Shown here one piece after another: positions 13,943 through 32,919 of a stretch of 64,000 nucleotides of DNA (positions are counted from its first letter, which is position 1; each line of letters opens with the position of its first letter). The stretch is from Acholeplasma sp. CAG:878 (GTDB taxonomy: Bacteria; Bacillota_I; Bacilli_A; RF39; UBA660). The notes below the pieces were generated by a model. It was not told the DNA's origin. It did no database searches and was given only the letters and a program-made list of their open reading frames with translations. The stretch is taken from positions 17,260 to 81,259 of the forward strand of contig HF989928.1 in the NCBI GenBank assembly GCA_000432255.1. The letters run 5' to 3'. Made by a program: the position numbers and the translations under genes.

Positions 13943-13986
13943 ATAACCACCATATCTATACTACTAGATTATTTATCTATTTGCAA

Positions 13987-14008: not shown

Positions 14009-14011
14009 AAT

Positions 14012-14938
14012 TTAGATTTTTAAGACTTGACCTATACTTAATATATTACTTGTTAAATTATTTTTTCTTTTTATTTCATCTACAGTTGTGTTGTAATTTC
14101 TTGCAATACTATATAAATTATCACCTTTTTTTACTGTATATGTGTTTGCCTTAGTAGATGGAATTAGTAATTTTTGATTGATACTTAATATATTACTTGT
14201 TAAATTGTTTAATGATTTTATTTCATCTACAGTTGTATTGTATTTGTTTGCAATACTGTATAGATTATCTCCTTTTTTAACTATATAAGTTTGATAACCT
14301 TCTGATGGTGTGGGTACTGTTTTTGTAGGAATTAATAGTCTTTGACCTATACTTAAATTAGTAGTTGATAGGTTGTTATAGTCTACTATATCCTTTACAT
14401 CTAGGTTATATCTTCTTGCAATGTTATATAGATTATCACCTGATACTACAGTATAAACTGTATAATCACCTGGTTCGACCGGAACTTCTGTTTGTGGAAT
14501 TTTTAGGACTTGGCCTATATTTAACAGATTACTTGTTAAATTGTTTGCAGCTTTTAATTGTTCTACAGTTGTGTTGTATTTTTTAGCTATACTCCAGAGG
14601 CTATCACCCTTTTTTACTGTATATGTATTTTGAGTTGATGGTAATCCTATATATTCGCTAACTGCTCTAACTACTGCTTCTGCATATCGTTCATAATTGT
14701 TTTTTAACCTATTGGCATCAGCTTCTGTGTCTAGAAATCCATATTCTACTATAATTGGTTCTGTTATACCTGTGTTTCTATGTATAAAATAGTAATCTTT
14801 TGATGTGTTGCTTGGTAATCTTCTTTGATATGCTTTTCTAAGTACTTGGCCTTCCTTACCGATTTCTTCTAAAACTAAGTCTGATAATTCATTATTATTG
14901 CGTAGAGCGTATATTACTTCGGCACCTTCGCCACCTCC
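14012..14938 (-). pseudogene. C-terminal 308 codons of N-acetylmuramoyl-L-alanine amidase (Amidase_3 second half + 4 LysM), separated from its 5' part by the mobile element
   Basis: Own translation gives GGGEGAEVIYALRNNNELSDLVLEEIGKEGQVLRKAYQRRLPSNTSKDYYFIHRNTGITEPIIVEYGFLDTEADANRLKNNYERYAEAVVRAVSEYIGLP, then 4 units of YTVKKGD.LYSIA..YNTTV.E....NNLTSN.L.IGQ.L.IP, then TAA. It contains no ATG or GTG and so is missing from the ORF track. 927 nt is in frame. Confidence 0.9.
14015..14625 (-). repeat. Four tandem LysM-coding repeat units (about 130-160 nt period)
   Basis: Recurrent DNA blocks such as acttgttaaatt...atttcatctacagttgt.ttgta...ttgcaatact..ta.a.attatc.cc. They translate to LysM modules on the minus strand. 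Confidence 0.85.
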
Positions 14939-14958
14939 GGAAAGATTTTATGTGATTA
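14934..14958. other. attL: 5-bp crossover core CCTCC (14934-14938) plus element-side arm TTATGTGATTA (14948-14958)
   Basis: The core is shared with 32943-32947. The arm is the inverted partner of TAACCACATAA at 32920-32930. Confidence 0.75.
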
Positions 14959-15002
14959 GGCTATCATTTTTTTCTTGATTTTACTGCATTTTTATTTTTT
15001 CT

Positions 15003-15056
15003 AAAAATAGTATAGGGGATGGTAAGATTGTGTGATTAACAATTTTACCACCCTAT
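15003..15056 (-). terminator. Long hairpin / terminator after the recombinase gene
   Basis: ATAGGG(GA)TGGTAA...TTACCACCCTAT arms with an inner ATTGT/ACAAT stem. T-rich on both sides. Confidence 0.45.
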
Positions 15057-15065
15057 TTTTATTAT

Positions 15066-16691
15066 TTAATTTATTTCTTCATAATTAGTTTTTATATCTT
15101 CTAGCACCTTAAATCTATATTGAATTTCTATATTTCTATCTTTATCAATATAAATATTTTTTACTAAAGTTTTTATGAGTTCTCTGTTGGGTTCATCTAA
15201 ATTTAAAAGTGATTTTATTTGTTTTTCATGTTTAGCTATTTCTTTTGTATCTTCTTTAATCTGATTTTCTTCATTATCAATTTCATTAATTTTATAATTT
15301 AAGGCTGATATTTGTTTTTCCGTTTGTGTCGACATTCTTGTATAAGTATCAACACTTATTATTCCATTAAATTTGTCATCATATAAAGCATCAGATTTTC
15401 TTTTTAATTCATCAATCTCATTTAATAATTGTTGCTTTTCCTTTTGCCTATCATTCTTTTCCTTTGCTCTATCTTGTAATACTCTTTCAGATAACTCTTT
15501 GATATTTAAACTATCTAAATATTTTTGACAAGTAGTTTTAATAACACTCATTATTTTTTCTTCTAGTTTATCATAAGGAAAGAAATGTGGATAACACAAA
15601 TGTCTTCTTGGATCTCTTGCATATTTATTGCAATTAACACTCCAATATTCTCCATCCTTATAGTTTTTATTTTTTCTATAAAGAACACTTAAAGAATTTC
15701 CGCATTCTTTGCATACAAGTAGATTTTCTAATAATCTTTTTTCTCTATTACAATGAGTTGTTCTTACTCTTGCAGGAGCATTTTGTATTGCTTCAAACAC
15801 TGTCTTACTAACTAGAGGTTCATGAGTGTTTTCTACTATTATCCAAAACTCTTTTTCTAAAGCAACTTTCTTTTGAGATTTATAGCTTAATTTTGTTTGA
15901 ACATTTTGTACCATATCCCCTATATACATTCTATTTTTTAATAATTTATTTACTGAGGATATTGTCCATACATTCACTTTTTGTCTTGAAGATGATTTAG
16001 TATTTTTATACATACTAGGACTTAATACCTTATTATCATTTAAGTATGATACTATATCACTTACTCCAGTTCCAGAAAGAGCCATTTTAAATATATTTTT
16101 AACAACGGGAGCAACTTCTGGATCGGGTATTAAATGTCCTTTATCAAGTGGATCTCTCATATATCCATAACATGGTTTACTACCTATAAATTTACCTTGC
16201 TCTTTTTTATTTTTTAGTATTGAACGAATCTTCTTAGAAGTATCTTTACTAGTCATATCATTAAACAAAGCTTTAAATGGAGCAATGTCATTATTAGCGC
16301 TTTCTAGAAATGTATCAACTTGATCTAGTATAGAAATATATCTAATTTTCTTTTGTGGAAAATATTGTTCTACATAATAACCACATTGAATGTAATCTCT
16401 ACCTAATCTTGATAAGTCTTTCGTGATTACACAATTGATTCGACCACTTTCAATATCTTTTAATAATCTTTGAAAAGAAGGTCTATCAAAGTTAGTTCCA
16501 GTAAATCCATCATCTACATATTCATCAACCAAAGTATATCCACTCATTTTTACATAATCCATTAATAAATTTCTTTGATTGATTATACTTTCACTCTCTG
16601 ACTCATAAGTTTTATCTTCATCACTTTCTGATAATCTGATATATAAACCTACTCTATAAAAACTTGGTGCTTGTATTATATTGTTATACAC
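15066..16691 (-). CDS. Large serine recombinase (resolvase N-domain + recombinase domain + zinc ribbon + coiled coil)
   Basis: VGLYIRLSESDED catalytic-Ser region, VITKDLSRLGRDY, CKECGNSL...CNKY zinc ribbon, and a K/E-rich coiled-coil tail. GTG start is preceded by GGAAGGAG. Confidence 0.93.
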   Translation of the reverse strand: MYNNIIQAPSFYRVGLYIRLSESDEDKTYESESESIINQRNLLMDYVKMSGYTLVDEYVDDGFTGTNFDRPSFQRLLKDIESGRINCVITKDLSRLGRDYIQCGYYVEQYFPQKKIRYISILDQVDTFLESANNDIAPFKALFNDMTSKDTSKKIRSILKNKKEQGKFIGSKPCYGYMRDPLDKGHLIPDPEVAPVVKNIFKMALSGTGVSDIVSYLNDNKVLSPSMYKNTKSSSRQKVNVWTISSVNKLLKNRMYIGDMVQNVQTKLSYKSQKKVALEKEFWIIVENTHEPLVSKTVFEAIQNAPARVRTTHCNREKRLLENLLVCKECGNSLSVLYRKNKNYKDGEYWSVNCNKYARDPRRHLCYPHFFPYDKLEEKIMSVIKTTCQKYLDSLNIKELSERVLQDRAKEKNDRQKEKQQLLNEIDELKRKSDALYDDKFNGIISVDTYTRMSTQTEKQISALNYKINEIDNEENQIKEDTKEIAKHEKQIKSLLNLDEPNRELIKTLVKNIYIDKDRNIEIQYRFKVLEDIKTNYEEIN

Positions 16692-16941
16692 TTACTACTC
16701 CTTCCAATGTGCATAACTTCAATAAGCAATATCATTATACCACAAACTTTTACTGCTTACTATTTTCTAACATCAATTTTAAGTACTCCTCTATTAAATC
16801 AACCAAGTTTTTATCTTTATCGAAAGTTTCAGTTATATTCACTAATCTACACCTCTCCTTTCATTTTATGAAATAAGAACGACTATAAGACTTTATTATC
16901 AAAATTAGAGCATAAAAAAATTAGTTATATTTCAAACTAAT

Positions 16942-17514
16942 CTAGTAATAGAAAATATTATATTCTTTTAATCTATTTCGTTTTCGCTTAACATTTTGAA
17001 GTTCTAATTTGTAAAATTCTAGTTTTTTTAAATAATCTTTACGGAAATAGTTTTCACTTAACCATTTAACGCCTTCTTTAGAAATTATTACTTTACCATC
17101 TTTTAAATACTTAAATGATTGATTATTTCTTTTTTCCATTCTATTAACTGCAACACCAATAACATTTTTACTTCTATTAAAATAACTTCTTAAATCATAT
17201 AAAGATATATCTTTATATTCAAATTTATTATGAGGAAAATTAAGCTCGTCTTCTAATCTTAATATTTGTTTTTTAAAGAAAACAATTTCAGCATCTAAAT
17301 AAAATAGATTGTTATTTAAATAAACTTCTTCTATCCATTCTACAAGTTCCAATTTTAGATATACTACTCTTTCACCATTCTGAGCAAAATGTTCATCAAT
17401 CCATCTCTCATTTGGATGTCTTCTTTCTAATCTTTTCACTAATCTCTTATACTGTTTCTCACTCATATTAAACTTCTGTAAAACACGCCACTTCTCCATT
17501 GATTTAAATTCCAT
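16942..17514 (-). CDS. Hypothetical DNA-binding-like protein with internal duplication (candidate element regulator or RDF)
   Basis: ATG at 17514 (MEFKSMEKW) is preceded by AAAGGAG. Two halves each end in a similar segment: ERVVYLKLELVEWIEEVY and GKVIISKEGVKWLSENYF. No family recognised. Confidence 0.6.
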   Translation of the reverse strand: MEFKSMEKWRVLQKFNMSEKQYKRLVKRLERRHPNERWIDEHFAQNGERVVYLKLELVEWIEEVYLNNNLFYLDAEIVFFKKQILRLEDELNFPHNKFEYKDISLYDLRSYFNRSKNVIGVAVNRMEKRNNQSFKYLKDGKVIISKEGVKWLSENYFRKDYLKKLEFYKLELQNVKRKRNRLKEYNIFYY

Positions 17515-17785
17515 ATTTCTCCTTTCATTTCTTATCACATTTTAGGTTACAATTAAATCCTCTTTTTAGGTTACATAACCGTGTAATACAATATATCAAG
17601 CATGGTGTATACACACCCATCTAGCTTGTTAGGGAATATCCCTAAAACCCACTAATAATCTCCGACAGTTTAGAAATTTTTTAATCAAATTTTCATTTAA
17701 TATTTCAACTATTTCATAAAATTCATTATCAATTTTTAAAAATATAACTCACCCTCTTTCTTTGATAAAAATAAACATGGACATG

Positions 17786-17811
17786 AAAAAAGAGAGATAA
17801 AAAAATCTCTC
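17786..17811 (-). terminator. Rho-independent terminator inside the element's intergenic region
   Basis: Minus strand GAGAGAT-tttttt-ATCTCTC followed by T6. Confidence 0.65.
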
Positions 17812-17845
17812 AAATAATCCTTCTTTATAATTACCCTATATTACC

Positions 17846-17874
17846 ATAATACCACAAAATAATAGGAATTGCAA
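17846..17874 (-). promoter_or_regulatory. Promoter-operator module A (extended -10 sigma-A type)
   Basis: Minus strand TTGCAA-17 nt-(TGg)TATTAT. Overlapped by the inverted repeat TCCTAT-N22-ATAGGG (17834-17867). Confidence 0.6.
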
Positions 17875-17991
17875 TGGCACGATTTTCATCAAATGCTTCA
17901 CTATCCATTATAAAATAAGGGCTTGTAAAAGAAAAAATAATTTGCAAAAATACAAATTATTTCTATCATCTTACAACTTTCCTATATTATC

Positions 17992-18020
17992 ATTTTAGCA
18001 CAAAATCATAGGACAGTCAA
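17992..18020 (-). promoter_or_regulatory. Promoter-operator module B (extended -10 sigma-A type)
   Basis: Minus strand TTGACT-17 nt-(TGc)TAAAAT. Overlapped by the inverted repeat TCCTAT-N22-ATAGGA (17980-18013). About 75% identical to module A, 146 bp away. Confidence 0.65.
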
Positions 18021-18078
18021 CGGACATGATGCAATATTAACCTTCTTTTCCTGAAATTCTATTGAATTTATATATTAT

Positions 18079-21000
18079 TTAATGCACTCTAAATTCATCA
18101 ATTAATACACCTGCAATTTCATTGTCATGAGCTATCAATATACATAAAATATCTTCATAAGACTTAATTAATTCTTCATCTAATTTTATTTTATCGCTAT
18201 ATTTTGTAAATGATTTAATAATTATCATATTAATAATAATATCTACATCGCCTTTTAATTCTTTTTCTAGAATATTATAGTTACTATTGTTGTAAGATAA
18301 GATTTCTTTTACACTAATTAAAATTTCAGGTAGTAATTCATCAACATTCAGTAAATATAAAGATTTAATAGCATCCCTTATATAATAAATTCCGTACTTT
18401 GAAAACTGCCTGTTTAAAAACATTTTATCTTCATAGCTATAACTTGTTTTTATCTCCGAAGGATTCCACTTACAATCTCTTGATGCATTAAAGAAAAGAC
18501 ATTTATATAATTGCTTTTTTACTTTTTCATTTTTAATATTAACAATTCTTTTTTCAACTTCTGATATCTTCTTTTTACAGATATTTCTCCTAGAAGCATT
18601 ATTATAAGAATCATAAAATTCAGCAATAAAACCACCCATAATTTTCTGATAAAATTCTATTGCTTCCTCTTGAAATATTTCAAAATTAATATCTTTAAAC
18701 AAAAAATCAATCACATTTTCATTATATTCTAATGTGTAAATTAATTCTTTTTGTATAAAAGAAACTAATTCAAATTCACTATATGTATCAATGATTTCAT
18801 AATATAGCCTATCTTCTTTACAAGAGTCATATATATTTATCATGCATTTCAACAATTCTTTTAGAATTTTTTCAAAAGATTTGTTACTTAAAGTCATTCC
18901 ACAATTAACAATTTTAAATAGTAATTGTATATCATAATCATCAATATTGAACTGATCAAAATTTAATTTTTTTTCATCAAACAAATAATCTTGTATAACT
19001 TGTTCTTTTAAGCTTTCATACTTTTTTTCGCGACTTTCTTCAAGTTGATAATCCACACCAGAAAGATTGGGCACAAAATTAGGCTTAAATACAAATCCAG
19101 ACTCTTTAACATACGTAGCATTATATTTTTGATGATTCATTTCGTCTTCTGAAAGTTTGATGATAGTATTAAATATAATTCTAGATAAGTTAGAATTACC
19201 TAACAAATACTGAGATATTTTTAATTGTATTTGTTTAATAATACCATCATGTGTATCATTTATAATGCATTTCAAAATTATTGTTTTAATTTTATTTTTT
19301 ATTTCATCACTTGTATCTTCATATAATTGACCTAATAAAATATTAATTAATTGTGGTTCAAAAATAAAAACTTCGTTTTCAAATATTTTTTCCAGTCCAG
19401 TAATCCAGAAATCACAAAAATTATTTCTTTCTAATGTAGATAATTTTTCTTCTTTTAGGGCTATGGAGATAAAACATATTAAGATGGATTCATATCCACT
19501 AGTTCTATCACTATTGCTATTTATAATACCATTTAATTCTTCAATACAATTTAGGAGCTTATCTCTATCGTTTTTTCCTCTTTTTCTATCTCTAATATAA
19601 TTATCAATTTTATTTTCTAATTCAACATAAATCTCATTTTGTTTTTCATGTAAATCTGTCACTTTTTTTGCTTCACCAGTAATTTTAGTTTCAATCATTG
19701 ATGTATTTTTATCAACTTCAGTTATTACAGCATTTCGCATATCGATTTTTTGTATTTGAAGATAATTAATTGCATTATCCTCAGTATTAGTAATAATAGT
19801 ATATAAATAATCCAATATTTTAAAAACCCGTTTTTGAAAATCAAAACCAAAACTAATTTGCAAACTTATAGCATAATTTTCAATATGAATTGCACATTTT
19901 TTATCTAATTCATATCTATATTTTATTTCTGGCAACCCAATTTTTAATAATAATTGTTTTTCTAGCATTTGTAATTGAGAGTTATTTAAATATAAGGAAT
20001 ATCTATGAGTATCCCAATTTATAATATCAATACTCGTAACTAAATCTAAGGCATATCCAGGAAACTCATTTTGAAAATGTAGTCCTATATTCTCTATTAC
20101 TGTCAATAAAATTACGTTATTTGATTTTGAATAAATTTTATTTTTAATATTTAATAGTATCTTTTCAACATTTTCTTTATCAGATAAATTCTGTTGAATA
20201 AAATTAATTATGGAATCTTTAATATAAAATACAATATCACTTAACAAATCAGGAACATATCCGTCCCTTGTACCAGCCATCCACATATTATTATTTCCAT
20301 AATATTGCTTAATTTCATTTGTATCAATAAATTTTATTTTTACTTTAAGAACATTGTCGGGTGAGTTTTCTGCATAAACGTCAACAGAATTATTTATAAA
20401 ATCAATTGCCCAATCTAATCCAATATAAAAGTTTACTCTAAAAAGATTCCACAACAAAACATTTTTATTTGGTGTTTGAAATGAATACTTATAATCTTCA
20501 CATAATCCATAATCATTCTCGACATTACTATGATAATAAAATTCATTATTTGAGTTTTTTTTGATCCACAGAGTATTAGCAATAAAACACATTTCATGTG
20601 GCAATTCTTTAACAAGATTATAGTGTGCATTTTCTGAAATCCATTGTAATATTTCTTCCAACATTCTCTGATTTTTTTTACTTTCGCTGTTATAATCCTC
20701 TAATAATTTAGTGAAAAAGTTCTTTAACCATTCAGAACAAGTTTCTGAAAGTTTGAAAAGTACAACAAGATATTTATCAATATATTCAATGACATTGAAC
20801 CACTCTTTATCGACTTTTTGGAAAGCATCATCAACAAAAAATTCTAAAATTGAACAAACAAGTATATCAATTTCTTTTAATCTGTTATTGTTTTGATTTG
20901 TATAGTCTAAACAAAGTTTTGCAACTTTAGACTCATTAATAGCATTTTTTAAATATAACTTTTCTTGAGCAATTATTTTTATTATATTTTTACGACTTCC

Positions 21001-22821
21001 ACCAGTTGGAATCAATATAGCTTTTGGAAATTCATTATTAAAATCAACTAATTTCAAATCGAAGCAATAAATATTGCAAATATCTATAAATTCATCTAAT
21101 AAATTATTATCTAAAATATTAAATATATTTTTTTCGAAGAAATTGTCATTATAATTTGATTTTAATATTCCAATTTCAGTTTGCTTTTTCCACTCGTTAG
21201 ATACGCAATTAGAAAATACCAAGTTATTTATAAATTTATCCTGATTTTCTTTAGTAAATAATTTATTAGAAATCCATATTTGATATCTTCTATAGACACA
21301 TCTACCCATTTTTTCTATTTTTTTATAAAAATTATCATATTTCCCTTTACAAGAGATAAACTGTTCATCAAAAAATTGTTCAAAACATATGTCTTCAAAT
21401 ATATCATATTTTAAACGAATACCCTCTTTATTACGTATAACTATTTCTTCTGAAATTAAAGCAGAAATAATATTAGAATCAATATCTTTCTCACTGACTC
21501 CTAAAATAAATTTTTTTGCTCTGTCAAAAACTATTTTTTCTATTGCCTTTCTAACATTAGATACTTTAATATTATATTTTTTAGTTTCAGACTTCAAACA
21601 AATTATATTTTCCCAAATATAATATCGGAGTTTATTAATATCATCTATACAGTCTGGATTAATATTATATGACATAATGATATTTATATAAAAAGGTATT
21701 TTAAGCAAATCGTTATAGCTATTATTTTGTGCTAACTTGTTTATAATTGGGTATTTTTCTTTAATTAAATTTAACTCTTTTGATGAGATTTCGTCTATCT
21801 CATACAATTTAATCATATAGTTAGATTCAAGTTTTATAAATGCATTATTATCATTTGATCTACATGAAGTTATTATATGTGCATTCTCATATTTTGATAC
21901 TGTGGAATATAATGATTCTAATAATTCTAGTTTAGTTTTTGACGCATCAGCAATAAATTCTAAAGCATCTATAAAGAATACAATTCTTTTACCATTTAGA
22001 AAATCTAACATAGTTTTAATATCAAAATCCCAAATACTATTTAGATGAGTTTCTTCAACAAATCTTTCAGCACGTGCAAATAAGACCAATTCCTCATCAT
22101 CAAGGTATTTTTTGCATAAAACTGACTTCCCGCTACCAGCAATCCCTTGAATGGATATAAATTTATTATTATCATCTTTTATTTTTTTCAAAAAATCTGA
22201 TCTATCAATTTCATATTCGCCATTTATTTTTACATCTATATTTTTTATACCAACATTTTTGCTAATATCTAAGGCTTCACTAAATTTTAGTGATATTTCG
22301 TTGTAATTTTCAAATTCTTGTTTAAGTAATATGAAGATATCTTCTTGAAATTTTATATCATTTTTTGATCGTGTTACAATATCTAGAGTAGTTATTAAAT
22401 TCTTGCTTTTATCAAAAGGAATATTACCAATTTGATTTTTTCCAGTATAATTTTTAATTTTTGTAATTTTATCATTATGTAACACAAAGAAATAGACTTC
22501 TGTAATTTCAGAATATTTATTATCCTTGTTATCTCTGACATTTTCTAAAGTACTTTTAATCTTATTTTCCACATCAAAAGTTGTACTTACTTGAATATAT
22601 ATTTTTTTATCTTCTGATATCAAATCAAAATAAGGAAAATTACATCTCTCATCATTTAAATTATAAAATTTTTGATTAAAGTATAGTTCACAAATATTCT
22701 GCGCAAATAATTCAAACATTTTTGCATTATCAAATAGTCCATTTTTATTAGCTAATTTTATCTTTTGTTCATATGCAGACATATAATCTATAATAAAATC
22801 CATTCTCTCTTTTGAATACAT
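18079..22821 (-). CDS. Giant STAND (NACHT-like) P-loop NTPase with SMEK-like N-terminal domain and about 1150-aa helical C-terminal region; candidate antiphage NLR/Avs-like protein
   Basis: Walker A ISIQGIAGSGKS (DNA about 22124-22150). Walker B RIVFFIDALEF. HIITSCRS and LLKIPFYINIIM resemble the NACHT sensor and winged-helix motifs. N-terminal NAKMFELFAQNICELYF...NFPYFDLISEDKKIYIQVST resembles the SMEK-domain pattern (from memory). Adjacent to Type III R-M. Confidence 0.7.
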   Translation of the reverse strand: MYSKERMDFIIDYMSAYEQKIKLANKNGLFDNAKMFELFAQNICELYFNQKFYNLNDERCNFPYFDLISEDKKIYIQVSTTFDVENKIKSTLENVRDNKDNKYSEITEVYFFVLHNDKITKIKNYTGKNQIGNIPFDKSKNLITTLDIVTRSKNDIKFQEDIFILLKQEFENYNEISLKFSEALDISKNVGIKNIDVKINGEYEIDRSDFLKKIKDDNNKFISIQGIAGSGKSVLCKKYLDDEELVLFARAERFVEETHLNSIWDFDIKTMLDFLNGKRIVFFIDALEFIADASKTKLELLESLYSTVSKYENAHIITSCRSNDNNAFIKLESNYMIKLYEIDEISSKELNLIKEKYPIINKLAQNNSYNDLLKIPFYINIIMSYNINPDCIDDINKLRYYIWENIICLKSETKKYNIKVSNVRKAIEKIVFDRAKKFILGVSEKDIDSNIISALISEEIVIRNKEGIRLKYDIFEDICFEQFFDEQFISCKGKYDNFYKKIEKMGRCVYRRYQIWISNKLFTKENQDKFINNLVFSNCVSNEWKKQTEIGILKSNYNDNFFEKNIFNILDNNLLDEFIDICNIYCFDLKLVDFNNEFPKAILIPTGGSRKNIIKIIAQEKLYLKNAINESKVAKLCLDYTNQNNNRLKEIDILVCSILEFFVDDAFQKVDKEWFNVIEYIDKYLVVLFKLSETCSEWLKNFFTKLLEDYNSESKKNQRMLEEILQWISENAHYNLVKELPHEMCFIANTLWIKKNSNNEFYYHSNVENDYGLCEDYKYSFQTPNKNVLLWNLFRVNFYIGLDWAIDFINNSVDVYAENSPDNVLKVKIKFIDTNEIKQYYGNNNMWMAGTRDGYVPDLLSDIVFYIKDSIINFIQQNLSDKENVEKILLNIKNKIYSKSNNVILLTVIENIGLHFQNEFPGYALDLVTSIDIINWDTHRYSLYLNNSQLQMLEKQLLLKIGLPEIKYRYELDKKCAIHIENYAISLQISFGFDFQKRVFKILDYLYTIITNTEDNAINYLQIQKIDMRNAVITEVDKNTSMIETKITGEAKKVTDLHEKQNEIYVELENKIDNYIRDRKRGKNDRDKLLNCIEELNGIINSNSDRTSGYESILICFISIALKEEKLSTLERNNFCDFWITGLEKIFENEVFIFEPQLINILLGQLYEDTSDEIKNKIKTIILKCIINDTHDGIIKQIQLKISQYLLGNSNLSRIIFNTIIKLSEDEMNHQKYNATYVKESGFVFKPNFVPNLSGVDYQLEESREKKYESLKEQVIQDYLFDEKKLNFDQFNIDDYDIQLLFKIVNCGMTLSNKSFEKILKELLKCMINIYDSCKEDRLYYEIIDTYSEFELVSFIQKELIYTLEYNENVIDFLFKDINFEIFQEEAIEFYQKIMGGFIAEFYDSYNNASRRNICKKKISEVEKRIVNIKNEKVKKQLYKCLFFNASRDCKWNPSEIKTSYSYEDKMFLNRQFSKYGIYYIRDAIKSLYLLNVDELLPEILISVKEILSYNNSNYNILEKELKGDVDIIINMIIIKSFTKYSDKIKLDEELIKSYEDILCILIAHDNEIAGVLIDEFRVH

Positions 22822-22965
22822 CCTAATCACCCTAACAACTTATTTAATAATATAGAAAAATTTTTTTTATTTTGATTTATCACTAAAGATTTAGTATTTA
22901 CTTTTTTTAGCCTTTTTTACAAAGAATATCTCGAATATAAAATCTATACCATTTTTTATAAAAAT

Positions 22966-25620
22966 CTAATCAACTTTGTATTGTTCAGTTAAATATTTAA
23001 AAGTTGAATTACTTTGTATCTTACTTGAAGGTATCAAAACATATTCCCAATGTTTATTACCTGTTGAGTCTGCCCATTTTGATACTAATTGACAATATGA
23101 AAGTGCTCTTTCCTGTTTTGCTAAAACATCAGCATCATCTAATTTATTATCTGCTTTTACTTCAACTAAATATACAATAGATTCTGTTTCTACTACAAAG
23201 TCTGGTTCATAACGTTTTCCACCATTATATATAATATTAAACTCATTTGGACTAGGTCTTAACCATGTACGTACAAAATTATCTTCTCTTTCAAGCTGTC
23301 TGGCAAGTATAAGTTCTGGTTCACTATCAAATTTTGCTGAACTAAATACACCTCTCTTTATTCCATCAAATAATATTGAAGTTATTTTTCCATCGTTTTT
23401 AGAATCATATGAATCAAAAATATTCTTTACTTTACTATAACTGTAATTTGATTGAAAATTTATATTACTATTACTAAAAGCTTCTTCCTTTATCAATCCT
23501 TCGTTTCTAATAAAATGTCTTAACATTTGAGAATAAATTTCTGATGTTATTTCATTTTTATACATCATAACTATGTTTTTTGTTCCGTCTACACCATATT
23601 GTTGTTCATAATAATCTGTCAACTGACTTATTAATTTAAATAATAGCTCTGAACTTTTTTCATAATCAATTTCTGCTTTTTTTCGTAACTCATCAACAAT
23701 CGACTTTTTAGGATTCAATATATCAAAAGTAATATAACCTTTTTCTATTTTTTCTTCGTCTGAGGAATCTAATAAATTTCTTAAAATTAATTCATTTTCT
23801 ATAGGTTGCTGATTAAATTTAGTTAAATCCAAATCAAAATCATCAAAGTAGTATTCACCTTCTTCTCTTTCTACCTTAATCTTTGGTATTAAAATAAATT
23901 TATTAAGAATTTGATCGTGTGTCTTAATAATATTTTCTTTTATCCAATTTTCAATCGGATTTTTATTTTCATCATAAATTTTACCATAATCCTTATCTTT
24001 TTTTATTTCATATTCTATAGCATCTTTTATTTTAATTTTTCCTTCATCCGTAAAATTATTATTAGAACTTAAAGTGTAATTTTCAACATTCTTTACTAAT
24101 AAATCATTTATTCTATTTGCAAAACCATATTTTTCGCTTTCCTCACATACAACAAGTTTATCACACAATTCATCATCTGAGGGATATTCCAGAGGTAAGC
24201 GCGTAAAAATTATTTTTTCCTTTTCTAGTTCTTCAGCTTTTATAATATTACCTTTATTAAAAATTGAATCACCTTTTTGGGCTTCTTCTATAATTTCCTT
24301 AAATTTATCATGTGCTGTAAGCATAACAGAGTCAATATCCTTATCACCAGTTCTTTCACCATAAGGTAATCGCAGTCCTCTTCCTACCATTTGTTCCCTT
24401 AATATTTTTGAACTTGCTGTCCTTAAAGGCACAATTGTATAAAGATTATTTACATCCCATCCTTCTTTTAACATATTAACATGAATTACTATTTCAATTG
24501 GATTATCAACTTTTTCAACATCCAAAAGCAACTTTGTATTAACTTCAGTTTCAACGCCTGACATTTTTGAATTTATTGTTATTGTTTTAAATTTATAATG
24601 TCCATTCTGAAAGTCATCAGATTTTATATACTTTTCTATTTTTGAAGCATGTTCAGTGTCTTTACATACAACTAACATAAATGGTTTTATTAAATCCTTT
24701 TTCATACTTCTAGAATAATAAAATAGTTTTTCCTTAATGCGTTTATGACATAAAATTCCATCATTTAACATCAATTTATCTATCTCATCATCACCAAAAT
24801 TATAAAAATTAATATCCGTTCTAGTAACTGCAAAAGGAACTCTTGTATATCCGTCTTTTATTGCTTCAGATAATGGATATTCGTACACAACATTTTTAAA
24901 TGGAATTTGCTTACCTTTTACATTTACTAAAGGTGTGGCAGTCAATTCTAAGCCTAAAATTGGTTTCAGATTGTTTATAGTTTCCATTCCTCTATCTGCT
25001 CTATAATGATGTGATTCATCCATAATAATGACTAAATCTTTCATTTCTGCTAATTCATCATAAAAAGACATTCCTCTTACTTCACTGAAAGCTTTCATTT
25101 TTGTATTTTCTTTATCAAATTTACTTATATTATAAACATAAATTGTTACTTCAGAATCAAATAAATTTATCATTCTATTAAAATCATCATCAGCGACTAC
25201 TCTTGGAGGATTATTAAAACATCCAATTCCTTTAAACACATATTTAGAATTATCTGGATTTCCTAGGTCTCTTTTTAATTTTTCATATATAGTTGTAGAT
25301 GGAGCAATTACTAAAAAATTTTTAATATTATAATTTGTATAAAGATATGTTATGAATGCTCCCATAAGTCTAGTTTTACCAACACCTGTTGCTAATGCAA
25401 ATGTTAATGAAGTAAATGTTCTTTCAAATTCAGTAAATATTGGATATTTTGAATTAATTACCTTTAAATTATTAATATTATCTTGGTTATATTCACTCAT
25501 TAAGTTCGTACTTTTTAATATATCATCCAATATTTGCAATGACTTTTCTTGCGGGTTTCTTAACGACATTATACCAGATATATAATCAATAGAATACTTC
25601 ATACTATTTACATCATTCAT
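22966..25620 (-). CDS. res: Type III restriction enzyme, Res subunit (SF2 helicase + PD-(D/E)xK nuclease)
   Basis: LATGVGKTRL (motif I), IIMDESHHY (motif II), MLKEGWDVNNLYTIV, QMVGRGLRLP (motif VI), C-terminal YEPDFVV...YLVEVK. ATG at 25620 lies 9 nt after GGAGG and overlaps the mod stop by 8 nt. Confidence 0.93.
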   Translation of the reverse strand: MNDVNSMKYSIDYISGIMSLRNPQEKSLQILDDILKSTNLMSEYNQDNINNLKVINSKYPIFTEFERTFTSLTFALATGVGKTRLMGAFITYLYTNYNIKNFLVIAPSTTIYEKLKRDLGNPDNSKYVFKGIGCFNNPPRVVADDDFNRMINLFDSEVTIYVYNISKFDKENTKMKAFSEVRGMSFYDELAEMKDLVIIMDESHHYRADRGMETINNLKPILGLELTATPLVNVKGKQIPFKNVVYEYPLSEAIKDGYTRVPFAVTRTDINFYNFGDDEIDKLMLNDGILCHKRIKEKLFYYSRSMKKDLIKPFMLVVCKDTEHASKIEKYIKSDDFQNGHYKFKTITINSKMSGVETEVNTKLLLDVEKVDNPIEIVIHVNMLKEGWDVNNLYTIVPLRTASSKILREQMVGRGLRLPYGERTGDKDIDSVMLTAHDKFKEIIEEAQKGDSIFNKGNIIKAEELEKEKIIFTRLPLEYPSDDELCDKLVVCEESEKYGFANRINDLLVKNVENYTLSSNNNFTDEGKIKIKDAIEYEIKKDKDYGKIYDENKNPIENWIKENIIKTHDQILNKFILIPKIKVEREEGEYYFDDFDLDLTKFNQQPIENELILRNLLDSSDEEKIEKGYITFDILNPKKSIVDELRKKAEIDYEKSSELLFKLISQLTDYYEQQYGVDGTKNIVMMYKNEITSEIYSQMLRHFIRNEGLIKEEAFSNSNINFQSNYSYSKVKNIFDSYDSKNDGKITSILFDGIKRGVFSSAKFDSEPELILARQLEREDNFVRTWLRPSPNEFNIIYNGGKRYEPDFVVETESIVYLVEVKADNKLDDADVLAKQERALSYCQLVSKWADSTGNKHWEYVLIPSSKIQSNSTFKYLTEQYKVD

Positions 25621-27361
25621 AAAATTCATCCTCCATATCATTGGAAATATCATTTACAACATTTAGATTATAATTATTTACATTAAAAACACATTTATTT
25701 AATAACATCTCTGGTATTTTTTTTATCATTATATTTTTGTACTTATTTAACAGTTCTTCATCATAAGCAGTACACGCAATAACAAGATACTCTTCAGGAA
25801 GCATAGAACCCTTTATTTTTTCTAGTGTCATTGAATTTAAAAATTGAGTTGTTACATATAAATAACTATTTTCATTTCCTATTGATTGTTTCCAAAAAAT
25901 TTCTTTATCAGGATTGTATTCAAAACCTTCATGGAGTGCAACTGATCTTGCTAGCATTTCTGGATTGTAGTTTTTATTAATAACCATTTCCCCAAAAGAA
26001 TCTTCATTTATTAAAGTTGGTGCAAGTTCATAAAAATTGTAACCTCCTCCACCATTCCAATTAACAATCGAGGTAATTCCACCATTATCTTTTCCATCAA
26101 TGATTAAATTTAATCTTTTTATACAATGCGTATATACATGTTCACCCATCTCAATTCCTATCCAATTTCTATTCATTTTATGAGCAACCGCTGCTGTAGT
26201 ACCACTACCTAAAAATGAGTCTAAAACATAATCTCCTTCATTTGTACTCATTTCTATTATCCTGTTTAACAATAATTCTGGTTTTTTACCATTAGGAAAT
26301 TCTACTTGACCTTCTTTTGTTAAATTATTAAGATTTATTCCATCCCATAAAGTTCCTTGTAAGTCTTTCTTTAACCATTTTCCATCTTTATATTCTGTTA
26401 CATCTTTTAGCCAAGTAAGTAATCTAAATTTATCGCCTTTATAGAATTGCTCATATTCATTTCCTTTGTTTTTACCAGTCTTAGGAATATATTTGATGCT
26501 AATTACATCTGAATGTTTAATGCCTTCTAATCTTTCCATTACTCTTGGTCTAATTGAAGATTGTGGCATTGCAGTTGTATGAATTCGATCCATATACTTA
26601 TAATATACTTCATTTTCTGAAATATTTTCTTGCTTTGCAATTTGAGATATTGACATAAATTTTGCATTTTGACGATTATATATTTTAATTTCATTTCCAT
26701 CGCCATCTACTGTTGATGCTAGATATTCAGGGTCTCCTTTTTCATATAATACCGACGTATATTTCCAGCTAATACCTTCATCTTTATATTTTTTTACCAA
26801 TTCACATATTTCTGTATACGCATATGCATTTTGTAGCCATTTAAAATTATCATATTTTTTAGTATATGTAAGGATAAATTCAATATTCTTTTTTAATCTT
26901 TTATCTTCCCCTCCACCACTTGCACCTGCAATATTCTTCATTTTAACTGTTATAGTATTCAAATAATTATTTCTACCAAAAATTTCATCACATAATACTT
27001 TCAAATATGCATATTCATTATCATCAATTTGAATAAATATTATACCATCCTCTCTCAATAATCTCCGCAAAATAACTAAACGTTCCTTCATTAGGTTTAG
27101 CCAAATACTATGTTCTAGATTATCATTATAATGTTCAAATGCACTTCCAGTATTATATGGAGGATCTATATAAATACATTTTATCCTTTCTGAATAATCC
27201 TTTTCTAATGCTTTCAATGCTAAAAGATTGTCCCCATGAATGAGAATGTTTCGAGAATTTTTATCACCATAACTTCTTTCATCATCCTTAATCAATATTC
27301 TAGGTTCTACCTTTTCTTCATTGTTTTTTCCTATCCATGTTAATTCTAATTTACTTTTCAT
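25613..27361 (-). CDS. mod: Type III R-M Mod subunit, N6-adenine DNA methyltransferase
   Basis: CIYIDPPYNTGSAF (motif IV) and DSFLGSGTTAAVAHKMNRNWIGIE (motif I), in beta-class order. ATG at 27361 (MKSKLELTWIGK). Confidence 0.93.
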   Translation of the reverse strand: MKSKLELTWIGKNNEEKVEPRILIKDDERSYGDKNSRNILIHGDNLLALKALEKDYSERIKCIYIDPPYNTGSAFEHYNDNLEHSIWLNLMKERLVILRRLLREDGIIFIQIDDNEYAYLKVLCDEIFGRNNYLNTITVKMKNIAGASGGGEDKRLKKNIEFILTYTKKYDNFKWLQNAYAYTEICELVKKYKDEGISWKYTSVLYEKGDPEYLASTVDGDGNEIKIYNRQNAKFMSISQIAKQENISENEVYYKYMDRIHTTAMPQSSIRPRVMERLEGIKHSDVISIKYIPKTGKNKGNEYEQFYKGDKFRLLTWLKDVTEYKDGKWLKKDLQGTLWDGINLNNLTKEGQVEFPNGKKPELLLNRIIEMSTNEGDYVLDSFLGSGTTAAVAHKMNRNWIGIEMGEHVYTHCIKRLNLIIDGKDNGGITSIVNWNGGGGYNFYELAPTLINEDSFGEMVINKNYNPEMLARSVALHEGFEYNPDKEIFWKQSIGNENSYLYVTTQFLNSMTLEKIKGSMLPEEYLVIACTAYDEELLNKYKNIMIKKIPEMLLNKCVFNVNNYNLNVVNDISNDMEDEFYE

Positions 27362-27503
27362 AATATACACCACACTTATAATTTCTCTTCTAATCTTAAA
27401 TACTTATTTTTATCTAATTAAAAAATTTTTTAAATTAAAATTTTTTGGATGATTGCTAATATTAATTATACTATAAAAACTGGCAAAAATCGACTTTTTA
27501 TGA

Positions 27504-28539
27504 TTAATTAGTATCAATTATTGTTTTTCTTAATTCTTCTTCTAAAGAATGCGATAATTGTATTAAATATTGTTCATTAAAATCAATATCAGTTCGATTT
27601 GACATCTTTTTTTCAATAAGATCAAATATTTCATTTCTATCTTTTTGAATAGCAATTCTATCAAAAATTAATCCAGCCCATGAATTATCAAAATAATGGC
27701 AGCCCATAAATATTAATTTTAAATTTTTATCATTTGTTGCAAAGAAAATTTCTTTATCTGAAAAATGGTAGTGAAAATTATTGATTGATGACAAATAAGA
27801 GATATCCCAAGCCTAATTTTTACATCCCCTAATAATTTTTTCAAAATCTTTACTTTTAATATTTTTTGGTGCCTTAATAGTCGAATAGTTAGTGAATAAT
27901 AAAATTGCATAGGTAATATCATACATAGATAATTTTAAATTATCATAATACCAATCAAGATACTTTAAAATTTTGTTTTTTGTAGATAATTTAGTTAGAA
28001 AAACCTCTGCAATTTTTAAAACCGAACAATAACTAAGTAAATATGTAATACTTTTATTTTTATAATTTGCATGGCGGTGAAATTTTACTGATATATCAAA
28101 TTTTTGTAATTTATAGTTCCCATTTTTTAAATGATTTAAAAAAACTAAACTTGGAATTTCAGATAGATAAGTCAACAACTCATTTAATTGCCTAATGACT
28201 TCTGAATTTTCTGTTAAATCTCCATATTCATTCATTGCCAATCCAATATTATATTGTAATCCATTACAATTACAAAACATCAAAAATGATAGTAGCATTA
28301 TCATATTATCTTCTTTTTTTTAATTCACCATTTTTAAGATAATCAAACAACATTGAAGTTATATTTCTATCTAATACAATAATTTTGTCTTTCTTATTCA
28401 TCAAATATTCTTTGTAATGAGTAAATTTTCCTTCCATAGCATAATAAGGATGAAAAATAATTTGAAAAGAATTAACTAAATCAAATATATCATTTAAATC
28501 ATTATCCTCTAAAATAATCAAATCGTTCATACAAATCAC
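27504..28539 (-). pseudogene. Decayed single gene (about 340 codons) now read as three ORFs of 77, 163 and 96 aa; function unknown
   Basis: ORFs 28306..28539 and 27813..28304 are joined by removing one A from an A8 run (28314-28321): ..NGELKK|EDNMIMLL... ORFs 27813..28304 and 27504..27794 are in the same frame, separated only by one TAG (27813-27815): ..RGCKN*AWDISYLSSINNFHY... Confidence 0.5.
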
Positions 28540-28711
28540 CTCAAAACATTAGCATAGCTATTCTTATAATAATTAAACAGTTAATTATATTATACCATGT
28601 CTATATGGTTTTATCGTCTTTATCTATTTGTTTTAATAATTGATTTTAAATAATTTATTATGAATTAAAAACCGTATTCGGAAATCCACATACTCGTAAT
28701 GGTGCACTGGA

Positions 28712-29008
28712 TTAATTTTCATATGGTTTTTCATAAATTATATATTCATAATCAAATCTGCCATTTTCATCTCTAGCTTCAATAACTTTTAAATATTTAT
28801 TAACTTTTAATTCATTTAATATTTTTCTAATAGTATCTCTACTTTCAACACAAATACTTGATAATCCTAATATAGAATAGTCCCAATTATCTGGTAATGA
28901 TAACATTAAAGATAATAAACCCTTTGCCTTTAAACTTAATCTTCTATCCTTCAAATGATAATTTCCCATAACTATATATCCTTCTTCTCTATTTGATTTT
29001 ATTTTCAT
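28712..29008 (-). CDS. Winged helix-turn-helix DNA-binding protein (HTH_36-like, common on Firmicute mobile elements)
   Basis: LSLKAKGLLSLMLSLPDNWDYSILGLSSICVESRDTIRKILNELKVNKYL pattern. Confidence 0.65.
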   Translation of the reverse strand: MKIKSNREEGYIVMGNYHLKDRRLSLKAKGLLSLMLSLPDNWDYSILGLSSICVESRDTIRKILNELKVNKYLKVIEARDENGRFDYEYIIYEKPYEN

Positions 29009-29036
29009 ATTCTCATATCCTTTCTTTTCTCAAAAT

Positions 29037-29059
29037 AAAAAAGCCTATATAAATAGACT
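29037..29059 (-). terminator. Terminator after the rnlB-like gene
   Basis: Minus strand AGTCTAT-ttat-ATAGGCT (one G-U pair) followed by T6. Confidence 0.5.
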
Positions 29060-29086
29060 TTACGCTCAACAAACAATTTCATAAAT

Positions 29087-29440
29087 CTAATTGTTTAATA
29101 CATAATTTATTGTTGATTTTGTTAATGTACCATTATTTAATATATCAACATGTTCTTTTAAATATTGTTTAACAGTTTTTTTACTTGATTCTGATACATC
29201 ATTTGGATTTATGATTATACTATTATAGCTTCCTTCTTCAAAGTTTAATAATACATACCTATTAAATGAATATCCATTTCGCAAAAACAAATCTACAATA
29301 ACAGAGAATTTATTTCCTTGAGTTTTTGAAAGTTCATTGTATATATCTTCAGTAAAAAAATATAAGTCATCAATATTGTTCAAAAAAATATAATTTTTAT
29401 TTATATCCTCTTCAAAATTAAAAATTTCATAATCGTTCAT
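29087..29440 (-). CDS. RnlB-like antitoxin
   Basis: 117 aa, directly downstream of the RnlA-like gene as in E. coli rnlAB. VIVDLFLRNGYSFNRYVLLNFEEG versus E. coli RnlB ILFDLLCANGPEWNRFVTLEMKYG (recalled sequence). Confidence 0.6.
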   Translation of the reverse strand: MNDYEIFNFEEDINKNYIFLNNIDDLYFFTEDIYNELSKTQGNKFSVIVDLFLRNGYSFNRYVLLNFEEGSYNSIIINPNDVSESSKKTVKQYLKEHVDILNNGTLTKSTINYVLNN

Positions 29441-29452
29441 AAATATTCTCCT

Positions 29453-30499
29453 TTATTTATAAAAAACATTATAAGATTTTTCAATATTTTCAATAATTTC
29501 ATCAACTATTTCTTTTGCTTCTTGCCAATTTTCAATTATTCTTGTTTGTGATGGTTCAATTGTTGCATGCAAGAACACATTTCTCTTATTTGAATATATT
29601 TTATTTAATTTTATTAAATATTCTTTTTCATCATTACTTATTAATTTATCATTTTCAATTTTACTTGAATTTCCTCTATCTTTATAAAACATTGAAAATT
29701 TATTTTTTTTATCAATCTTATATGAATACTTATTCACTAATACTTTTGTTAAGTAACCTTCTAATGTTTTAAATGCACCTGTAACACAACAAGTATAATC
29801 CTCACTTTCTTTTATTGTTTTAAGTGATGTGATTGATCCTGAAAGAGATTTTATCAATGCTTCATCTAAAAAAGTATATGAATTTGATAAATTTGCTTTA
29901 ATTGTTTCTCTTATATCAGCTGTTGAAATTTTTGTTGTTGTAAACATGTTGTTTATTTCTATAATACTATCAAGAGATACAGAAGATAATTGAGATAATA
30001 AGGTCATTATTATACCAAAAGTTTTAAAAGGTCTACCTTGAATCATAACTTTATTAGTTTGAGGGTAAAATGTTATATCAATATGATCTTTATTATACCC
30101 AATAAAACGAATTCTATTATTACTATAATATTTAATTTGAATTTCAGAAGAAAACTCATCTTCAACACATTTAATAAGTTCTTCAATTGTTTCTTTATTA
30201 CATGAAAACACTGTTTGTTTGGGTTGAGCACTATCAATAGGATAACCTAATTGAGCTAAATATTTTATTAATCTATTAGATTCTTCAGCATTTTTTCCAA
30301 TAGGCATCATTTTTACAGACATCTTTTTAACCTTAACATAAAATTTAACTTTGCATTGTTTTCCTGATATAAAAAAGTTGCATGTATATTCTTCTTTACC
30401 TTGAACTTTAATATAATTACTAAAAACAAAATCAATATTCTTTTTAGAATAATCTTTGATATAAGTTTCTATATCATCTGGATTTATATATACTTCCAT
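29453..30499 (-). CDS. RnlA/LsoA-family toxin (HEPN-type endoribonuclease)
   Basis: 348 aa. TNKVMIQGRPFKTFGIIMTLL versus RnlA TGKLQIQGRPLSCYRVFTFNL. DYTCCVTGAFKTLEGYL versus DYCMLLYPELRTIEGVL. Rx4H motif is RNVFLH. Confidence 0.75.
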   Translation of the reverse strand: MEVYINPDDIETYIKDYSKKNIDFVFSNYIKVQGKEEYTCNFFISGKQCKVKFYVKVKKMSVKMMPIGKNAEESNRLIKYLAQLGYPIDSAQPKQTVFSCNKETIEELIKCVEDEFSSEIQIKYYSNNRIRFIGYNKDHIDITFYPQTNKVMIQGRPFKTFGIIMTLLSQLSSVSLDSIIEINNMFTTTKISTADIRETIKANLSNSYTFLDEALIKSLSGSITSLKTIKESEDYTCCVTGAFKTLEGYLTKVLVNKYSYKIDKKNKFSMFYKDRGNSSKIENDKLISNDEKEYLIKLNKIYSNKRNVFLHATIEPSQTRIIENWQEAKEIVDEIIENIEKSYNVFYK

Positions 30500-30501
30500 T
30501 A

Positions 30502-31815: not shown

Positions 31816-31907
31816 AATATCAGTCCCCCACAACAACTTAATATAAGTATAACATATATCTTGCTAATTTTAATTTTTTATAGAAAATACACATCAAAAA
31901 TTTTATT

Positions 31908-32828
31908 TTACAGTTCTTTAGGACAATTTGGTTTATAATTAACATCATTAAATCCATAAACTTTTTTACAATCATTACAAATGATAGCAATAAAATCTAA
32001 ACCATTAATATTGTGTCCTTCACCTTTTTCTATAACTATATTATCTCCTTTACATATAGGACAATATTTATAATCCTTTTGACTGCATGCATCTCTAACT
32101 ATTTCATAACCATTATGAAAATCGTATTTGGGAATAAATTCTCCTGTATCAACACTTTTAATTCTTCCAAACATAAACTCTAACTTATCCACAGTTTTTT
32201 CCAAATGATAATGTCCACAATACCATTTATCATAATCTAATCTTTGCTCTACTTCATTTAGAAAATACTCCATAGATTTATCTACTGCTATTTGTGGTAA
32301 ACTTAATTTAAAACTTTCTTTGGGTTCATATTTTAATGGACAAGTATGAGACAAAATTATATCAACATGTTTTCCTGAATACTTGTCTAATATATCTAAT
32401 CTTTCTTGTTCAGTTAATTGTTCATCTTTAAACCAAGGATATCCTTTACTTATCCTATAATCTTTATCAATAGAATAAGCACCACCTATTACTAAAATAC
32501 TTTTACCATCGATATTATAAAGTTCTCCATTTTTAGCAAATATTAAATTAGGATATTCATCTTCTACAAATACTTTACCACCAAACATTTCTACTTCATG
32601 ATAACTTGAAATGTTTTCTGGTCTTTCTTCATGATTACCTTGAATACAGAAAAATTTAAAATTATATCGTTTTAATCTTTTCTTTAACTTTTTATCATAT
32701 TCGTCTAAATAATAATTAATACCCACATAGCCTAAGATAATCATGATATCATCTTCATTTAATCCTAAATGACCGAATCTATAAAAATCTCCGTGAGTAT
32801 CACCAGTTATATATAACATTCTTTTCAC
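31908..32828 (-). CDS. Metallophosphoesterase (calcineurin-like) with C-terminal double CxxC zinc ribbon
   Basis: LYITGDTHGDF, QGNHE, ILSHTCP, CGHYH. C-terminal CPICKGD...CNDCKK. Confidence 0.8.
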   Translation of the reverse strand: MKRMLYITGDTHGDFYRFGHLGLNEDDIMIILGYVGINYYLDEYDKKLKKRLKRYNFKFFCIQGNHEERPENISSYHEVEMFGGKVFVEDEYPNLIFAKNGELYNIDGKSILVIGGAYSIDKDYRISKGYPWFKDEQLTEQERLDILDKYSGKHVDIILSHTCPLKYEPKESFKLSLPQIAVDKSMEYFLNEVEQRLDYDKWYCGHYHLEKTVDKLEFMFGRIKSVDTGEFIPKYDFHNGYEIVRDACSQKDYKYCPICKGDNIVIEKGEGHNINGLDFIAIICNDCKKVYGFNDVNYKPNCPKEL

Positions 32829-32919
32829 CTCTCATTTTTAAAGTAATTTGATATATCTATTATACCATCATATCCAGTAAAATAAGAAGCTTATTAAAGT
32901 TATACACTATGCCTAGAAT

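Follow-up and report, generated by a model that had tools for sequence, protein, structure and literature searches.

A divergent Avs4-family STAND protein with an N-terminal SMEK domain, carried on an integrative element of Acholeplasma sp. CAG:878

The gene considered here lies on the minus strand of a 64,000-nucleotide stretch of Acholeplasma sp. CAG:878 (contig HF989928.1, positions 17,260 to 81,259; hereafter the window), and the 1580-residue protein it encodes is a divergent member of the known Avs4 family, with the same architecture as Avs4 of Escherichia coli (EcAvs4): a predicted Mrr-like nuclease domain, a STAND NTPase and a C-terminal sensor in a single chain. The protein has three modules, of which the first belongs to the SMEK_N family and the other two are homologous to the NTPase and sensor of Avs4; its gene has no conserved partner and is carried on mobile DNA. 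It probably acts as a single-protein antiviral STAND system of the Avs4 family, in which sensing of a phage portal protein would lead through oligomerization and activation of the SMEK nuclease to abortive infection.

Results

The gene and its start

The open reading frame (ORF) listing of the window gives one long minus-strand ORF at 18079..22830, of 1583 residues when counted from a GTG codon. An ATG at 22821, with the string AGGGTG upstream at a spacing of 6 nt, yields the protein of 1580 residues instead, and because the N-termini of all homologues read 'MxYSxERM' this ATG start and the coordinates 18079-22821 are right. The gene is intact, and all the motif strings quoted in the initial annotation are found in the protein (Table 1). 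A promoter scan did not rise above shuffled background (55 sites against 53.7 expected), and the 540-bp gap downstream (17539-18078) holds a terminator-like hairpin at 17792-17811.

A family alignment was built from 52 members, whose identity to the window protein ranges over 24-76%. Columns E37, D66, Q77, K87, G226, G229, G231, K232, D285, L287, E288, C320 and R321 are invariant in 52 of 52; given that range of identities, the motifs to which they belong are under selection and not the product of chance.

Homology of the NTPase and sensor to Avs4

Both sequence profiles and predicted fold show homology to Avs4 (AVAST type IV) along the whole of residues ~185-1580. The PADLOC Avs4 model PDLC02169 matches residues 97-1568 with its positions 83-1560 of 1570 (E = 1e-28) and spans 94% of the protein; the NCBIfam Avs4 model NF041815 matches residues 92-1549 with its positions 75-1550 of 1579 (E = 1.3e-44). 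Both alignments start inside the N-terminal domain (residue 97 on profile position 83 and residue 92 on position 75, respectively). Searched against the PDB, the 52-sequence family profile finds EcAvs4 (8DGF_A, 'ATP-binding protein Avs4', 1587 residues) at E = 2.3e-53, with residues 173-1336 collinear with 175-1351 of EcAvs4; the single sequence and a narrow 16-sequence profile did not reach EcAvs4 in the PDB. The E. coli plasmid gene WP_042035445.1, found by tblastn and named 'AVAST type 4 anti-phage nuclease Avs4' by the Prokaryotic Genome Annotation Pipeline, is matched in BLASTP at E = 4e-21 (21% identity over 883 columns) and by the family in hhalign at a probability of 99.9 and E = 1.7e-34 over 1304 columns (184-1578 aligned with 174-1573 of 1587). 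A search with an EcAvs4 fragment yielded only proteins of up to 835 residues, which were used for comparison of the N-domains and not as full-length references.

The AlphaFold2 (AF2) model of residues 381-1580 (predicted local distance difference test, pLDDT, 77.6; predicted template-modeling score, pTM, 0.65) was compared with the PDB using Foldseek. Two EcAvs4-portal chains (8DGF) head the matches (E = 1.6e-21, template-modeling score (TM) 0.57, 1264 columns), followed by generic HEAT/ARM solenoids at TM ≤0.19, with no other Avs structure among the top 50. For the AF2 model of residues 1-560, 8DGF is the sole significant PDB match (E = 2e-9). Since profile, BLASTP, hhalign and Foldseek all reach Avs4, the C-terminus, in which the initial annotation had recognized no catalytic motif, is on sequence and model grounds taken to be the Avs4 sensor. 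That annotation had described a long sensor in an Avs-like position, of about 1,150 helical residues; the position fits the Avs4 homology, which extends to residue 1578, and the region is predicted to be mostly helical with a few beta-hairpins, but its actual length is ~1,060 residues (521-1580). Where no trigger had been proposed for this region, the homology of the NTPase and of the whole sensor to portal-sensing Avs4 now supplies a strong precedent. The protein is accordingly no orphan STAND, both NTPase and whole sensor being homologous to Avs4.

The features of the STAND superfamily are present in the NTPase module: Walker A, Walker B with a downstream acidic residue, and a sensor-1 arginine, each of which aligns with a counterpart in Avs4 of E. 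coli (Table 1). Pfam returns only sub-threshold matches for this module (NPHP3_N, nSTAND5, NB-ARC, NACHT), and the family profile also matches CED-4. Canonical Avs4 fragments behave likewise, with weak matches to nSTAND3/6/1, NB-ARC and NACHT. The STAND assignment of the NTPase is supported by these features.

The SMEK domain as putative effector

The initial annotation had assigned the N-terminal pattern to a SMEK domain, and correctly so: residues 10-151 match Pfam SMEK_N (PF21941) at 98.3 bits against a cut-off of 27 (E = 4.6e-28), and the NCBIfam model SMEK_N (NF033859) scores 53.4 bits against a threshold of 30. The sole solved relative found by sequence is PDB 26bh, the Mrr domain of the Kordia jejudonensis Mrr-APAZ prokaryotic Argonaute (pAgo) system, matched at E = 1.3e-4 by the single sequence and at E = 2.5e-12 by the family profile; it retains each of the E, D, Q and K positions (AEHF, AIDL, FQIT, QKIT). 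In clade S2B short Argonaute systems SMEK has been described as the nuclease effector, of 'Mrr-like' type, and among nucleases AspBHI is given as its closest relative (10.1101/2023.06.08.544223); weak collateral DNase activity has been reported for SMEK-APAZ with KjAgo (PMC12205087; PMC10810196). The effector chemistry, on which the initial annotation had made no proposal, may thus be named: SMEK_N is a predicted Mrr-like nuclease domain of the restriction-endonuclease fold, and DNase activity has been reported for the SMEK-APAZ partner of a Kordia short Argonaute. By analogy with the activity reported for that homologue (PMC12205087), the SMEK domain of the window protein would be catalytically competent.

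In the AF2 model of residues 1-560 the N-domain (pLDDT ~72-92) runs helix 1 (with E37), strand, strand 2 (D66), strand 3 (Q77, S79), helix 2 (K87), strand. This alpha-beta-beta-beta-alpha-beta order is that of the restriction-endonuclease core, and topology together with E37, D66 and Q77 fits a PD-(D/E)xK, Mrr-like fold; the lysine expected in the (D/E/Q)xK motif of strand 3, however, is replaced by Ser79, a residue that is at least 90% conserved. Conservation suggests a catalytic role for E37, D66, Q77 and K87; QxS79 with a lysine from the following helix would then constitute an unusual active-site layout.

Canonical Avs4 N-domains carry the strings FEWFC...IETNP...GWQAKFY and gave no Pfam match. 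In view of the comparison set out below, the SMEK effector is taken, on sequence, to be either a different Mrr-like domain from that of canonical Avs4 or one that has diverged from it to an extreme degree.

Discussion

Proposed mechanism and alternatives

A mechanism may be proposed by analogy with EcAvs4 and the other tested Avs4 homologues, from which the portal trigger, oligomerization, DNA substrate and abortive infection are all drawn. In the uninfected cell the protein would be monomeric and its nuclease off. Once the portal protein of a tailed phage is expressed, it would be bound by the sensor, which would recognize the portal fold. In their ATP-bound state (Walker A K232; Walker B D285/E288) the NTPase modules would then oligomerize; published work describes tetramers for Avs3 and Avs4, EcAvs4 included. 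Oligomerization would pair the SMEK domains into active nuclease dimers, and these would degrade DNA indiscriminately, so aborting the infection. Avs4 homologues with Mrr, metallo-beta-lactamase (MBL)-protease, trypsin-Pepco or PD-DExK effectors all respond to portals (PMC12642450).

Several observations weigh against this proposal. The NF041815 score of 151.9 bits lies far below the 1500-bit equivalog cut-off of that model, and identity to tested Avs4 proteins is only 16-21%. The lysine of the QxK motif is replaced by S79, the sole invariant lysine (K87) standing eight residues further on, in the next helix. When the SMEK domain (52 sequences) was compared with the canonical Avs4 N-domain (77 sequences) in hhalign, the result was E = 0.11 with a collinear patch of just 25 columns, and for this reason the two effectors are not claimed as one family. 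Finally, the NTPase core (residues 178-344) is poorly modeled, with pLDDT below 50. Clade members as a whole score 105-154 bits on NF041815, by which measure the SMEK clade is a distant sister clade of Avs4 and not an equivalog, and at such a distance from tested Avs4 the ligand specificity of the clade could have drifted. It is doubtful, though conceivable, that the Firmicute SMEK clade is a functionally distinct offshoot of Avs4, either with a non-portal ligand (for example a structural protein specific to Firmicute phages) or with a SMEK domain of other substrate (ssDNA or RNA) or assembly geometry.

Of the rival explanations, the one that survives best is retargeting of an Avs4-derived chassis: the protein would work as proposed above, but its sensor would recognize a non-portal phage protein or several proteins. 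The low identity to EcAvs4 speaks for it, as does the fact that the sensor is the fastest-evolving part of the protein (43-74% identity over residues 381-1580 against 57-82% over residues 1-560 in the same homologues); moreover, Avs families sense different proteins, and one sensor can bind several triggers (PMC13581612; 10.1101/2024.12.17.629029). Retargeting is nevertheless unlikely: fold and sequence profile fit Avs4 across the whole sensor to the C-terminus, a response to portals is retained in Avs4 homologues as distant as those of Streptomyces and Acinetobacter (PMC12642450), and Avs4 tolerates portals with mutual identities of 10% or less (10.1101/2024.12.17.629029).

The initial annotation had called the NTPase NACHT-type, and a generic bacterial NLR of the NACHT clade (bNACHT-like), with sensor and effector uncharacterized and no relation to known Avs families, would follow that reading. 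Read by eye, the acidic residue at +3 after Walker B (D285-A-L-E288) looks NACHT-like, and weak Pfam matches to NPHP3_N and NACHT exist. The NACHT match (PF05729), however, is confined in the excised NTPase to the P-loop (its residues 43-59, E = 0.012), with NB-ARC and nSTAND equally weak, and the full-length protein gives no NACHT match in Pfam at E ≤1. The STAND P-loop NTPase of the annotation accordingly stands, while assignment to the NACHT clade is not established; and with highly significant Avs4 homology from end to end, a generic bNACHT protein is highly improbable and already largely refuted.

A third rival denies that the gene is an autonomous defense gene and makes it either a helper subunit of the Type III restriction-modification (R-M) system or a gene for addiction to, or maintenance of, the element. 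In its favor, the gene follows res (stop codon at 22966) on the same strand after 144 bp and has no convincing promoter of its own. This reading is hardly credible: a res homologue adjoins the gene in only 4 of 79 loci, these being copies of the same element (L001-L004, 96-98% identical), and is missing from the remaining 75; no neighbor family is conserved; and tested Avs4 homologues either act as single genes or rely on protease-effector partners, of which there are none here. On the same grounds the candidate role of Type III R-M subunit was rejected. The initial annotation had placed the gene directly downstream of a Type III R-M system, and res and mod are indeed there, but as incidental neighbors limited to copies of the same element. 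Clustering of three ORFs on each side across the 79 loci gave no conserved partner; the biggest cluster of neighbors consists of serine recombinases (10 of 79 loci), whose positions vary. The Avs4-like gene is a single-gene system traveling on mobile DNA, and the Type III R-M system is independent co-cargo and not its partner. The single-gene, NLR-like defense protein of the initial annotation gains support from this lack of a conserved partner, and none of the findings which that annotation had named as contradicting it, such as an NTPase of an AAA+ housekeeping family together with the lack of any SMEK-like or effector domain, was obtained.

Relatives and exchanged N-termini

An exhaustive search with the sensor only finds 305 representative clusters (50% identity) at E ≤1e-3; for 130 of them the match is at E ≤1e-30. 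Full-length members that share the sensor are all ~1,500-1,600 residues long, with the sensor beginning at ~510-525, and 53 of 63 full-length representatives carry SMEK. In 6 of the 63 (P0121, P0124, P0128, P0139, P0141 and P0179) and in 11 of 79 loci (L025, L027-L031, L033, L034, L054, L064 and L076) its place is taken by a module of ~150 residues, 'MDLxxxIGLLSSxVTxEEAGRSW...NWDSDDPxVQ', with a hydrophobic first helix and a swap point at exactly residue ~179. This module is a candidate new type of effector, possibly membrane-active. Pfam gave no match for the alternative N-terminal modules, nor for orf198 or orf163. One further relative (P0147) has an N-terminus of 254 residues with 'TAHH...GFSGCPF' strings, which looks trypsin-like by eye only and has no Pfam match; it is reminiscent of the protease-bearing Avs4 homologues in the literature.

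Hosts of the 79 loci include Clostridia, Lachnospiraceae, gut 'Bacilli' metagenome-assembled genomes (MAGs), Acholeplasmatales and Cetobacterium, among others. At NCBI the relatives are named merely 'SMEK domain-containing protein', because the 1500-bit Avs4 cut-off is far above their scores. No paper naming both 'Avs4' and 'SMEK' was present in the literature library searched. A locus attributed to 'Escherichia coli' (L078, CAVGNR010000003.1) was considered as a bridge to canonical Avs4 and dropped: it scores 133 bits on the Avs4 model, is a 34% identical member of the clade, finds no counterpart by megablast among 5,426 complete genomes of E. coli, and is probably a mis-binned contig. A 20.5-kb unannotated contig from human feces, deposited as 'UNVERIFIED: Bacteriophage sp.' (MT835780.1), encodes a 39%-identical homologue at 858-5072 with a non-SMEK N-terminus.

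The integrative element

The initial annotation had placed the gene on a mobile element, and the ends of this element have now been mapped, within a cell-wall amidase gene that it splits. The N-part of the amidase ends '...HINAGG' at ~32936 and the C-part resumes 'GGGEGAEV...' at ~14938, so that the junction falls within conserved 'HINAGGG' codons; a 'AATCACATAAA...GGAGG' repeat is present at both ends. Rejoined, the amidase matches the CwlD model from end to end (3-189 of 189), but below its curated cut-off. The element resembles skin-type intervening elements that are excised by a serine recombinase. spo0A is located in its flanks (33282-34049).

Besides the recombinase, the Type III R-M system and the Avs4-like gene, the cargo comprises a helix-turn-helix protein, an RnlA/RnlB-like pair, a tetratricopeptide repeat (TPR)-cold-shock protein and a metallophosphoesterase. 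The 198-residue ORF between recombinase and Avs4-like gene has no match in Pfam, NCBIfam or PADLOC; it may act in recombination as a directionality factor, or else as a regulator. Neither an APAZ nor a PIWI gene occurs in the neighborhood of the Avs4-like gene in the window.

Three other species-level gut 'Bacilli' MAGs (L001, L002 and L003, together with the fragment L004) carry the same element in the orthologous amidase gene. Because the Avs4-like gene is 96-98% identical among these copies while the amidase halves of L001-L003 are only 46-57% identical to those of the window, the comparison points to recent horizontal spread of the element with site-specific targeting. The cassette of RnlAB with the TPR-cold-shock protein is shared by L002 and the window only. 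The Type III mod gene of L001 and L003 is 58-73% identical, which suggests a different specificity.

Table 1. Features of the Avs4-like gene, its protein and the surrounding element (nucleotide positions refer to the window)
Feature	Position	Strand	Basis or remark
Complete coding sequence, Avs4-family antiviral STAND protein with SMEK nuclease (predicted)	18079..22821	-	ORF, homologue starts, Avs4 profiles, hhalign
N-terminal SMEK_N domain, residues 1-175, Mrr-like PD-(D/E)xK-fold nuclease effector (predicted)	22297..22821	-	PF21941, NCBIfam, 26bh, AF2
Putative nuclease active-site residues E37 (22711-22713), D66 (22624-22626), Q77-V-S79 (22585-22593), K87 (22561-22563)	22561..22713	-	Invariance, conservation in Kordia, model
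MFELFAQ	residues 35-41	-	SMEK region
FPYFDLIS	residues 62-69	-	SMEK region
IYIQVST	residues 74-80	-	SMEK region
KIKSTLENV	residues 87-95	-	SMEK region
STAND NTPase module, residues ~195-520, P-loop domain and helical/winged-helix part	21262..22239	-	Collinear with EcAvs4 175-~550; weak STAND Pfam matches
Walker A GIAGSGKS, residues 226-233, K232	22123..22146	-	Aligned to GEGGSGKT of E. coli Avs4
Walker B VFFIDALEF, residues 281-289, D285/E288	21955..21981	-	Aligned to VIVVDSAEKL of EcAvs4
Sensor-1-like IITSCRS, residues 316-322, R321	21856..21876	-	Aligned to VVFTTRN of EcAvs4
KIPFYINII	residues 374-382	-	NTPase region
C-terminal sensor, residues 521-1580, helical solenoid and beta-hairpins, homologous to Avs4 portal-binding sensor (predicted)	18082..21261	-	AF2, Foldseek, hhalign
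A+T-rich spacer, 144 bp, between Type III res stop and Avs4-like start, includes AGGGTG ribosome-binding site	22822..22965	-	
Terminator-like hairpin and T-run, ~270 nt 3' of stop codon	17792..17811	-	2 sites in region against 0.4 expected
Type III R-M system (res 22966-25653, mod 25613-27373), context only	22966..27373	-	Pfam ResIII / N6_N4_Mtase; PADLOC REase_III E = 2e-125, MTase_III E = 1e-144
Integrative element of ~18 kb carrying the gene, bounded by split Amidase_3-LysM gene halves	14938..32936	-	Mapped ends
Large serine recombinase, CcrB/XisF-like	15066-16691		On element
Split Amidase_3 + 4xLysM cell-wall amidase gene halves	13945-14960 and 32900-33211	-	
198-residue basic ORF between recombinase and Avs4-like gene	16942-17538	-	84-92% conserved in other element copies
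Second defense-like cassette	29087-32828	-	
RnlB-like antitoxin	29087-29440	-	
RnlA-like toxin	29453-30499	-	
TPR and cold-shock-domain protein, 444 residues	within 29087-32828	-	PADLOC PDLC01170 E = 7e-38
Metallophosphoesterase	31908-32828	-	

Significance

For the large set of gut-Firmicute proteins that databases call merely 'SMEK domain-containing', and whose sensor is shared by at least 305 clusters at 50% identity, the analysis makes the phage portal the likely trigger and cleavage by a DNA nuclease the likely effector chemistry. It also shows that the Avs4 chassis reaches Clostridia, Bacilli-type MAGs, Acholeplasmatales and Fusobacteria. The NCBI cut-off of 1500 bits misses the entire clade, which profiles of the PADLOC type and fold comparison recover. 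The protein also adds to the cases in which effector modules have been exchanged on an Avs sensor, here carried by a small integrative defense island. Because the PADLOC Avs4 profile already spans 94% of the protein and its architecture equals that of EcAvs4, the result is an annotation correction, useful for work on gut phages and their hosts, and not a new system or concept.

Comparison with known systems

The nearest known system is EcAvs4 (PDB ID: 8DGF), which is of near-equal length (1587 residues against 1580) and has the same domain boundaries, with an N-domain at ~1-175, an NTPase from ~185 and a sensor extending to the C-terminus (window residue 173 aligns with 175). Both proteins have an N-terminal domain of ~170 residues that the literature describes as a Mrr-like nuclease, and both are encoded by single genes that are mobile. 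They differ in sequence, at 16-21% identity, and in the N-domain, which is a Pfam SMEK_N domain in the window protein whereas canonical Avs4 has no Pfam model there; the active-site pattern is E...E/D...QAK in canonical Avs4 and E37...D66...Q77-V-S79...K87 in the window protein. The hosts differ as well, being Firmicutes and gut anaerobes for the clade of the window protein and Proteobacteria for canonical Avs4.

In Kordia jejudonensis SMEK-APAZ (PDB ID: 26bh) the N-terminal 160 residues are homologous to the window protein (E = 2.5e-12 with the family profile, as above), and in both cases SMEK would be the N-terminal effector of a sensor that acts by induced assembly. The sensors themselves are unlike: in Kordia a guide-loaded short pAgo coupled through the APAZ domain, in the window protein a STAND NTPase with a predicted protein-binding solenoid. 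The principle of an exchangeable effector is the same as in the effector-swapped Avs4 systems (AtAvs4 with an MBL-protease, SsAvs4 with a trypsin-like protease and Pepco, and the S. exfoliatus system with PD-DExK; PMC12642450), from which the window protein differs in that effector and sensor form one chain, with no conserved gene for a separate effector in the vicinity.

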